A stretch of 64,000 bases of DNA from an uncultured Actinomycetota bacterium (lineage in GTDB: Bacteria; Actinomycetota; Acidimicrobiia; Spongiisociales; UBA5794). The position numbers and the translations under genes were made by a program. Shown here in pieces: positions 10,807 to 11,824 of this stretch. The notes beneath the pieces were generated by a model, which saw only the letters and a list, made by a program, of their open reading frames with translations, was not told the DNA's origin and did not search any database. Location: contig CAWEEG010000002.1 in NCBI GenBank assembly GCA_963808015.1, forward strand, positions 1,114 through 65,113, read 5' to 3'. Position 1 is the first letter of the stretch. The number at the start of each line of letters is the position of its first letter.

Positions 10807-10833
10807 GCCATGCATATTCCACATATGCGCTAG
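10807..10833. repeat. dif-like site S7 with a 5-bp spacer: GCCATGCATAT-TCCAC-ATATGCGCTAG, abutting the recombinase stop codon
   Basis: Dyad present. The spacer is one base short, possibly a sequencing deletion. Confidence 0.5.
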
Positions 10834-10834
10834 G

Positions 10835-11752
10835 TCATCGGCTGGCTCCAGCGACGAAGGTGGCGACGATGTACGTGGCGTGCCGGTCGAGTGAGCGTCG
10901 GGCACGGTCGTAGCGCATCGTCGTTCTCGGATCGGCGTGTGACGCAGCTTCCTGGACGTCACGAAGAGCGACGCCTGCATCAAGGGCTGCGGTGATGAAG
11001 CTGTGTCGTAGCGAGTGAGGACTGATCTTCTTGTCGATCCCTGCCCGTTTCGCTAGCCGGTGTACGACGCGTGCGGCTTGGTGCCGGTTCATGCGCTGAC
11101 CGGTTTCGGTGGCGAAGATCGGTCCTTCGCTTCGTTCTCCGACAGCGAGGTACACGGTGCGTGCGGTTCGGGGTGCGAGCGGGATGATGACGGTCTTGCC
11201 TCCTTTGCGGTTCACCCGCAGTGTGTGGTGGCCGCGTTCGAGTCCGAGGTCGTCGACATCGGTGCCGAGGGCTTCGGAGACTCGCAGCCCATTCAATGCC
11301 AGCAGACATGCCAGGGCGTGGTCCCGGGTCCCGGATAGACCGGCTTGGACGAGGAACGCACCGAGTTCGTTGCGGTCCAGTCCGCTCATTGGGGACTCCT
11401 GCCGCTGCCGGGGCCGTCGCACGTTCGCTGCGGGATTGTGGGTGAGGAGTTCCTCTTCGACGCAGTACCGGTAGAACCCCGTCACGGTGGACAGCCTGCG
11501 CACTATCGTCGCACGAGCCGCACCGCGGTGTTCGAGCCAGCGGGCAAACAACTCGATGTGTGTTCGCCGCACGCCAAGCAGACCAAGATCCTGGTTGGAG
11601 CACCAGGAGACGAACTGGCGGAGATCCTGCTGATACGCCAACCGGGTGTTGCCCGAGTAGCCCGTCAAGAACCCGGCCAGAGCCAATTGAACCTCGAACG
11701 CCTGCTCCTCGCTCCGCCGCGCCATGACGACCGTTGATGATCCGATACCCAT
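10835..11752 (-). CDS. Tyrosine recombinase, XerC/D-like (N-terminal core-binding plus catalytic domain)
   Basis: Catalytic residues in NGLRVSE (R), RKGGK (K), PHSLRHS (H-x-x-R), SHADPRTTMRY (H, Y). About 300 aa, with no visible arm-binding extension or IntI-specific insertion. Confidence 0.95.
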   Translation of the reverse strand: MGIGSSTVVMARRSEEQAFEVQLALAGFLTGYSGNTRLAYQQDLRQFVSWCSNQDLGLLGVRRTHIELFARWLEHRGAARATIVRRLSTVTGFYRYCVEEELLTHNPAANVRRPRQRQESPMSGLDRNELGAFLVQAGLSGTRDHALACLLALNGLRVSEALGTDVDDLGLERGHHTLRVNRKGGKTVIIPLAPRTARTVYLAVGERSEGPIFATETGQRMNRHQAARVVHRLAKRAGIDKKISPHSLRHSFITAALDAGVALRDVQEAASHADPRTTMRYDRARRSLDRHATYIVATFVAGASR

Positions 11753-11824
11753 GTGTTACTCCCAACCCCAGCCGGGAGAACCAACCTGCACTACATCAAC
11801 TCAACCAGCGAGAGCCCATAGGTG

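Follow-up and report, generated by a model that had tools for sequence, protein, structure and literature searches.

Integrons set a tyrosine recombinase gene beside mostly single-gene, strain-specific cassettes that are parted by recombination sites. The recombinase-proximal sites carry a distinctive arm, and IS110-group insertion sequences target the sites. The recombinase bears the IntI signature and its gene lies at one end of the array, and the attC sites are 57–141 bp long and folded. A 2016 IntegronFinder survey counted 164 complete integrons and 279 orphan attC clusters, half of the latter in genomes devoid of an integrase, and found no complete integrons in Actinobacteria (PMC4889954). 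In Acinetobacter, small gene modules are delimited by short dif-like sites that have a 6-bp spacer. These pdif sites mimic the host dif, with one XerC and one XerD arm on which host enzymes act; inverted sites flank a module, and dedicated IS families target the sites (PMC6449649, PMC13141974, PMC10132070). XerH/difH, XerS/difSL, and archaeal XerA/dif each combine one Xer-clade protein with a nearly palindromic site linked to its gene (PMC5357621, PMC2731167, PMC2958812), and they serve as essential chromosome-dimer resolvases with a single terminus site. IMEX, integrative elements that exploit Xer (such as CTX and TLC phages), integrate at the chromosomal dif through sites that imitate it, especially its XerC arm. 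The integrase of mycobacteriophage Brujita is an actinobacterial two-domain enzyme that lacks an arm-binding domain.

The window, which is the whole 64,000-nucleotide stretch of Acidimicrobiia DNA analysed here, contains a locus that resembles each of these systems in part. It has the integron arrangement of recombinase gene, cassettes, distinctive recombinase-proximal arms, and IS110 insertions, and its relatives include orphan arrays, which in integrons are about as common as complete ones. Unlike integrons, its recombinase P0001 lacks the IntI signature, its sites are 26-bp dyads that appear from their sequence to be of the double-strand type, and the gene lies between two mirror-image arms with mixed gene orientations rather than at one end. 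It shares with the Acinetobacter modules the short dif-like sites and 6-bp spacer, the mimicry of host dif, the inverted flanking sites, and the targeting by IS elements; here, in contrast, both arms are of the XerC type (CCGCCCATA), the arrays are chromosomal and consist mostly of direct repeats, and one module encodes its own third Xer. P0001 and its linked, nearly palindromic sites recall XerH, XerS, and XerA, but the protein is accessory (23/251 genomes), is found in hosts that also have XerC, XerD, and a canonical dif, and is linked to tens of sites off the terminus. The IMEX-like mimicry is accompanied by an own recombinase and by arrays that lie away from dif. The two-domain architecture is that of the Brujita integrase, although the P0001 locus has no prophage context and the sequence match is distant. 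Literature searches found no published description of such a system.

P0001 is a stand-alone Xer-clade tyrosine recombinase of 305 amino acids encoded on the reverse strand at 10835..11752, with its TGA stop codon at 10835-10837 on the complement. Pfam identifies a Phage_integrase domain and an N-terminal SAM-like domain (SAM_1). Alignment to E. coli XerD (PDB 1a0p) places the catalytic set at R157, K183, H246, R249, H272, and Y281, which bears out the original prediction of an intact recombinase of about 300 residues with all six R-K-H-R-H-Y positions. These residues are invariant or nearly so among 38 aligned family members. The C-terminus had also been called distinctive; its motif RYDRxRxxLDRHATY is instead shared by the whole family and does not set this copy apart. 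In pairwise comparisons with seven orthologues, dN/dS is 0.06–0.23, and these low values place the gene under purifying selection. No excisionase, replication, or conjugation functions came up in Pfam scans of 20 neighbouring ORFs, in agreement with the original prediction.

The AlphaFold model of P0001 (pLDDT 91) is a two-domain (CB + CAT) simple tyrosine recombinase with a C-terminal helix. Its best structural matches in the PDB are the Brujita integrase (5vfz, top), XerD, XerA, IntI4, and XerH, and it also matches the Cre and lambda Int folds. P0001 has both the R-K-H-R-H/W-Y set and the CB + CAT fold that characterise the tyrosine recombinase superfamily. It is 32% identical to host XerC and 32% identical to host XerD, and it falls below the equivalog cut-offs for both (159.8 bits for TIGR02224, cut-off 335; 161.9 bits for TIGR02225, cut-off 330); the host XerC and XerD proteins of the complete genome G041 score 295 and 318 bits. 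P0001 likewise fails the IntI models (TIGR02249, 84.7 bits against a cut-off of 265; NF011946, 55 against 435), and the spacing of 63 residues between K183 and H246 leaves no room for the IntI extra domain. It also fails the single-recombinase Xer models (XerS, 60 bits against 267; XerA, 129.7 against 220). A sequence search of the PDB returned XerH at only E = 2.6e-7 and the Brujita integrase at E = 6.6e-11, and plasmid-borne relatives are at most 50% identical and have generic annotation only. As judged from these comparisons, P0001 is a third Xer-clade lineage that is accessory and distinct from host XerC and XerD.

The gene is preceded by a 5′ leader (11753..11811, reverse strand) that forms a hairpin just before the ATG in single-sequence folds. 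Within this hairpin (11753-11800), a Shine-Dalgarno-like GGGAG pairs with an upstream CTCCC, and a conserved block, GTGCAGGTYGGTTC, lies upstream of it. A leader hairpin of the same type, with differing stem sequences and the pairing kept, is present in eight of the eight homologues folded (L034, L037, L051, L052, L054, L055, L057, and L060). RNAalifold returned no consensus pairs on two alignments of the leader, and the hairpin is visible in the single-sequence folds. It possibly serves in translational control of the recombinase.

The best site in the window is the intact 26-bp reference site CCGCCCATAG-GTGCCG-ATATGGGCGG at 15464..15489 (forward strand), whose 9-bp inverted arms are perfect. 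The window contains five dyads (0.76 expected) and 13 GCCCATA half-sites (2.3 expected), and the shuffled window has no sites at the PWM threshold used. Across the 2.05-Mb MAG, sites are confined to the first 21 kb of the window’s contig and to three other contig ends. The reference site is preceded by an inverted class-2 site with spacer CCGGCA (15419..15444). Composite pairs of this kind, in which an inverted class-2 site (spacer CCGGCA) is followed after about 9–19 bp by a class-1 site, so that the starts are 34–48 bp apart, form many cassette boundaries, including those at 15419-15489 in the window, at 10508/10543, 10690/10725, and 11566/11601 in L034, and at 11838/11872, 14536/14571, 15973/16008, and 19827/19862 in L038. 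The spacers of the two classes share TGCCG, offset by one base, so a single strand of a composite pair could form a long hairpin, imperfect and containing bulged bases, that could be reminiscent of attC.

Three sites surround the recombinase gene. The proximal half of S8 (11812..11824), which consists of the inner arm GAGCCCATAG and half a spacer, marks where the recombinase module ends upstream and where DNA homology between genomes stops. An IS110-family element at 11825..13083 (reverse strand; transposase 11831-12874) occupies the S8 spacer and parts this half from the distal half, GCCGATATGGGCGG, at 13084..13097. On the other side, S7 (CCGCCATGCATAT-TCCACA-TATGCGCTAG, about 10805..10833) adjoins the stop codon; it is decayed, with a 3-nt insertion and an altered spacer, and its inner arm GCGCATAT is common to homologues. 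Beyond it, S6 is divided into a proximal half, GCACATATGCGTGCC, at 10785..10799 and a distal half, CCGCCCATATCG, at 9348..9359 by a second IS110-family element in its spacer (9360..10784, reverse strand; transposase 9546-10694). IS110 insertion has thus left both S6 and S8 as split half-sites, and with S7 decayed, the recombinase module is immobilised in the window. The original prediction had placed these three sites close to the gene, and the distances agree: S7 lies 1 nt from the stop, S6 5–7 nt beyond, and S8 59 nt upstream of the ATG. What it had taken for whole sites at S6 and S8 are only proximal half-sites, and its S7 is the decayed one.

Further IS110 copies and one IS30 lie near the recombinase gene, and these elements too each interrupt a copy of the 26-bp dyad. 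A lone 23-nt IS30-type inverted repeat also stands between the left half and the right half of two sites (16087-16137), apparently left behind when an IS30 copy was once inserted or deleted. In public metagenome and metatranscriptome contigs that match the window gene at 99% identity or more, S8 and S6 are intact and IS-free and adjoin different neighbours; the intact S6 reads CCGCCCATATC|GGCACATATGCG. Near-identical gene sequence is present in metatranscriptome contigs at 4–5x contig depth, for which DNA carry-over is a possible source.

DNA similarity between the window and homologous loci in relatives extends only from about 10820/10833 to 11824, from the S7 inner arm to the S8 centre. Because this homology stops in the site centres, the recombinase gene is a discrete module of about 1 kb. 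More distant loci were retrieved with an 11-sequence alignment search; the 38-sequence alignment had no conserved block. Wherever the flanks of a homologue of at least 73% identity are readable, inverted dyad sites bracket the gene, one 58–70 bp upstream of the ATG and the other 3–20 bp past the stop (proteins 73–94% identical, from relatives and metagenome contigs). The bracketed copies are L002, L003, L004, L010, L013, L034, L035/36, L037, L049-L051, and the G037 pseudogene. Their inner arms are GCGCATAG-like, and their outer arms are of the common CCGCCCATAT type. Acidimicrobiia and other Actinomycetota widely carry homologues at 62–72% identity, and most of these copies lack the sites. Other flanking inverted repeats occur in 10 of 71 distant homologues and in 3 of 213 controls, which makes packaging between sites a subfamily trait and not a family rule. 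The expectation that homologues would carry such dyads in their flanks therefore holds at 73% identity and above and mostly fails at 62–72%. Solitary homologues at 65–72% identity lack full sites. In L054, L055, L056, L059, L060, L068, L069, L074, and L082, which belong to this identity range, a terminator-like hairpin downstream of the stop is followed by ...CTGCCGG(T/A)TA-GGGCGG; this sequence resembles a class-2 right half and points to attachment sites that are degenerate or hybrid.

The boundaries at site centres are also what would be found if the module were a selfish minimal element, composed of the recombinase and two inverted end sites, that homes into pre-existing palindromes as IS110 and IS30 do here and moves itself rather than the array. 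In keeping with such an element, the gene is patchily distributed with many pseudogene fragments, many genomes have solitary copies flanked by half-site-like sequence only, and the gene is very abundant on 1–3-kb metagenome contigs with variable neighbours. Inverted flanking sites, however, preclude simple excision, and the array arms mirror gene polarity on both sides in independent genomes. We consider a purely selfish module improbable. An enzyme able to recombine its own sites could also recombine identical cassette sites, and in that respect the selfish element shades into a dedicated cassette recombinase. In salt-marsh and marine-sediment metagenomes (runs X1, X2, X5, and X7), the summed contig depth of the recombinase (window 10844-11802) is several-fold greater than that of the flanking IS elements. 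Homologues in metagenomes lie mostly on 1–3-kb contigs, and together the high depth and short contigs mean that the module is abundant in nature and has highly variable neighbours.

The same 26-bp site brackets many single-gene cassettes in related Acidimicrobiia. The recombinase gene adjoins a site-separated cassette array in G016:C5, L034, L037, G041, and the window. At least 11 sites of the same orientation, 300–1800 bp apart, follow the gene in G016:C5, and at least 10 sites lie on the opposite side of the gene in L034. Class-1 sites in the window have one orientation to the left of the gene and the opposite orientation to its right. This mirror polarity also switches at the gene in G041, where it includes the second site class, with spacer TGCCGG. 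G041 is a complete 2.61-Mb Acidimicrobiia chromosome in which essentially all sites lie in one locus of about 7 kb (2,185,566-2,192,188), centred on the single family member of the genome; the locus is about 0.49 Mb from dnaA and distant from the terminus. A co-variation of arm type (CCCATAG or CACATAA) with recombinase lineage was considered and dropped, since the types are mixed within G041. Larger phage-type integrase genes (frames of about 400 aa) lie just outside array ends at G041:C1:2192620-2193120 and at G010:C1:216012-216551 and 256518-257045, and the arrays may be part of genomic islands or lie next to them.

G016 contains three copies of a 305-bp cassette (L020 = G016:C5, 6439-9035), two of them in tandem. 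The upstream site arm differs from copy to copy, and identity among the three begins in the spacer, which places the crossover there. Neighbouring class-1 sites are mostly direct repeats, gene orientations within arrays are mixed, and cassette content is strain-specific. The cassette at 14690-15450 was sought in 21 congeners and no shared cassette was found, so movement of cassettes between genomes is not demonstrable in this way. Another array cassette (16307-18898, forward strand) encodes an 863-aa secreted-type protein with CarboxypepD_reg, SdrD_B, and Vps62-like domains; internal repeats of about 66 nt in this gene are also present at 19925-20127.

As short, GC-rich, hairpin-forming palindromes between genes, the dyads could be intergenic regulatory or terminator palindromes of the REP type that lie near the recombinase by chance. 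Short hairpin-forming palindromes are known targets of IS110 and IS30 elements, which also insert into them here. REP-like elements do not account for sites that lie at one or a few loci per genome instead of being dispersed, that consistently flank the recombinase across genomes, and that include hybrid sites around a duplicated cassette; strain-specific array content argues against them as well. This explanation has very little probability.

The cassette sites are related in sequence to the dif site of the host chromosome. A degenerate actinobacterial dif pattern has one match per genome in G041, G016, G018, G010, and G037, with the sequence A(C/G)(C/T)GCCCATAA-TCCACG-TTATGTCAAGT. These candidate dif sites (nnnGCCCATAA-TCCACG-TTATGTCAAGT) lie at G041:C1:1396544-1396568, G016:C4:323919-323943, G018:C3:168291-168315, G010:C2:21370-21394, and G037:C1:1586583-1586607. 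The G041 dif (1,396,544) adjoins the terminus predicted from dnaA at 66 kb, and the cassette arrays of this genome are about 0.8 Mb from dif. These positions of dnaA and dif in G041 rule out an IMEX-like reading with arrays at dif. A search of the window’s own MAG, which is about 65% complete, for a Frankia-type dif or a TTATGTCAAG arm gave nothing convincing. The XerC arm of dif (ACCGCCCATAA in G041) equals both arms of the cassette sites, such that the cassette arms CCGCCCATAG and CCGCCCATAT match it on both sides, and the XerD-type arm (TTATGTCAAGT-type) is absent from cassette sites. Palindromic arms had been thought to suit a single homotetrameric enzyme, and symmetric sites that have no XerD-type arm do fit a single-enzyme system. 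Since the sites are XerC-arm palindromes, either the third Xer has an arm specificity like that of XerC, whether retained or gained, or host XerC is involved.

Host XerC should bind the cassette sites too, because both of their arms are the XerC arm of dif, and it is a serious rival to P0001. Host Xer proteins, chiefly XerC, would then recombine the sites, as they do for Acinetobacter dif modules or IMEX, and the extra recombinase would be a cassette-borne passenger or an optional helper. XerC- and XerD-like genes are present in all genomes checked. In the window’s own MAG, the XerD-like gene (contig C7, ~193550-194477) and the XerC-like gene (contig C51, ~15932-16823) each consist of two overlapping frames, which could be assembly errors or real decay.

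The distribution of enzyme and sites bears on the same question. Among 251 genomes of the order, which are not phylogenetically independent and include many incomplete MAGs, those with at least 5 sites were classed as site-rich. A family member is present in 8 and absent from 9 of the 17 site-rich genomes, and it is present in 15 and absent from 219 of the 234 others; the co-occurrence has an odds ratio of 13 (p = 2e-5) over these non-independent genomes. Family members occur in 23 of the 251 genomes and in 12 of 41 close relatives, with many fragments, and do not constitute a core gene. Orphan arrays with well-kept sites are present in G010, G018, G025, G050, G194, and others. Of these, neither G010 (93% complete), with four separate unidirectional arrays, nor G018, with 36 sites, has a family member, and site preservation in both equals that in G016. 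The ends of the G018 array hold ordinary genes only and no hidden recombinase.

Well-kept arrays in genomes without a family member favour the host enzymes, as does the match of both arms to dif. They are not a strong argument, however, as half of the orphan attC clusters lie in genomes without an integrase (PMC4889954); integrons display a like pattern, and the orphan arrays thus weaken a role of P0001 as engine of the array and do not refute it. Three further points stand against the host enzymes. The cassette sites have no XerD-type arm, and in E. coli XerC is not known to complete recombination on its own, which together count against a host Xer reaction. The arrays also lie away from the terminus, and recombination by host Xer would leave unexplained why there is a third Xer, why it is under purifying selection, and why it is tightly linked to the sites. 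We regard host Xer as the main alternative, less likely but still substantial.

For P0001 as the dedicated, homomeric, Xer-like cognate enzyme of the 26-bp dyads, with arrays nucleated at its own two inverted flanking sites, we put the chances at about even. The original prediction had named the gene as the candidate engine of the array, packaged between sites. Its packaging in close homologues, its place at the polarity switch, and its nature as an accessory Xer agree with that proposal, whereas the lack of the enzyme in 9 of 17 site-rich genomes, the absence of such sites from most homologues at 62–72% identity, and the identity of the arms with the dif XerC arm speak against it. As the dedicated enzyme, P0001 would be an accessory, horizontally spread, single-subunit recombinase that places one monomer on each near-identical arm (CCGCCCATA). 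Two occupied sites would pair into a homotetrameric synapse like that of Cre, XerH, or XerA, and strand exchange would take place within the 6–8-bp spacer (GTGCCG). Between directly repeated sites, single-gene cassettes could be excised and re-inserted, and inverted sites would permit inversion or cassette exchange. Cassettes that enter either inverted flanking site would inherit its polarity, and the array would in this way acquire two mirror-image arms. The same enzyme would also bind the sites with the other spacer, TGCCGG, which would recombine only with their own kind.

Tentatively, and at somewhat less than even probability, Acidimicrobiia and perhaps other Actinomycetota may possess an undescribed integron analogue. 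It would be a two-armed chromosomal cassette platform in which a module of about 1 kb with a third, homomeric Xer acts on double-strand sites that are XerC-arm palindromes of two incompatible spacer classes, captures, duplicates, and shuffles single genes for mostly secreted or membrane proteins, and serves as a preferred landing pad for RNA-guided IS110 and for IS30 elements. An enzyme as small as 305 aa whose symmetric site spans 26 bp and whose spacers are naturally heterospecific could find use as a recombination tool. The mimicry of the XerC arm poses a sharp question, namely whether the host dimer-resolution enzyme or a dedicated paralogue drives the array. If true, the system would link Xer/dif hijacking, integron-like arrays, and site-targeted IS110 “bridge RNA” elements. 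It would represent an independent invention of gene-cassette capture by a different recombinase lineage with simple dif-like sites, and it would explain hypervariable loci in the abundant Acidimicrobiia of sediments and salt marshes.
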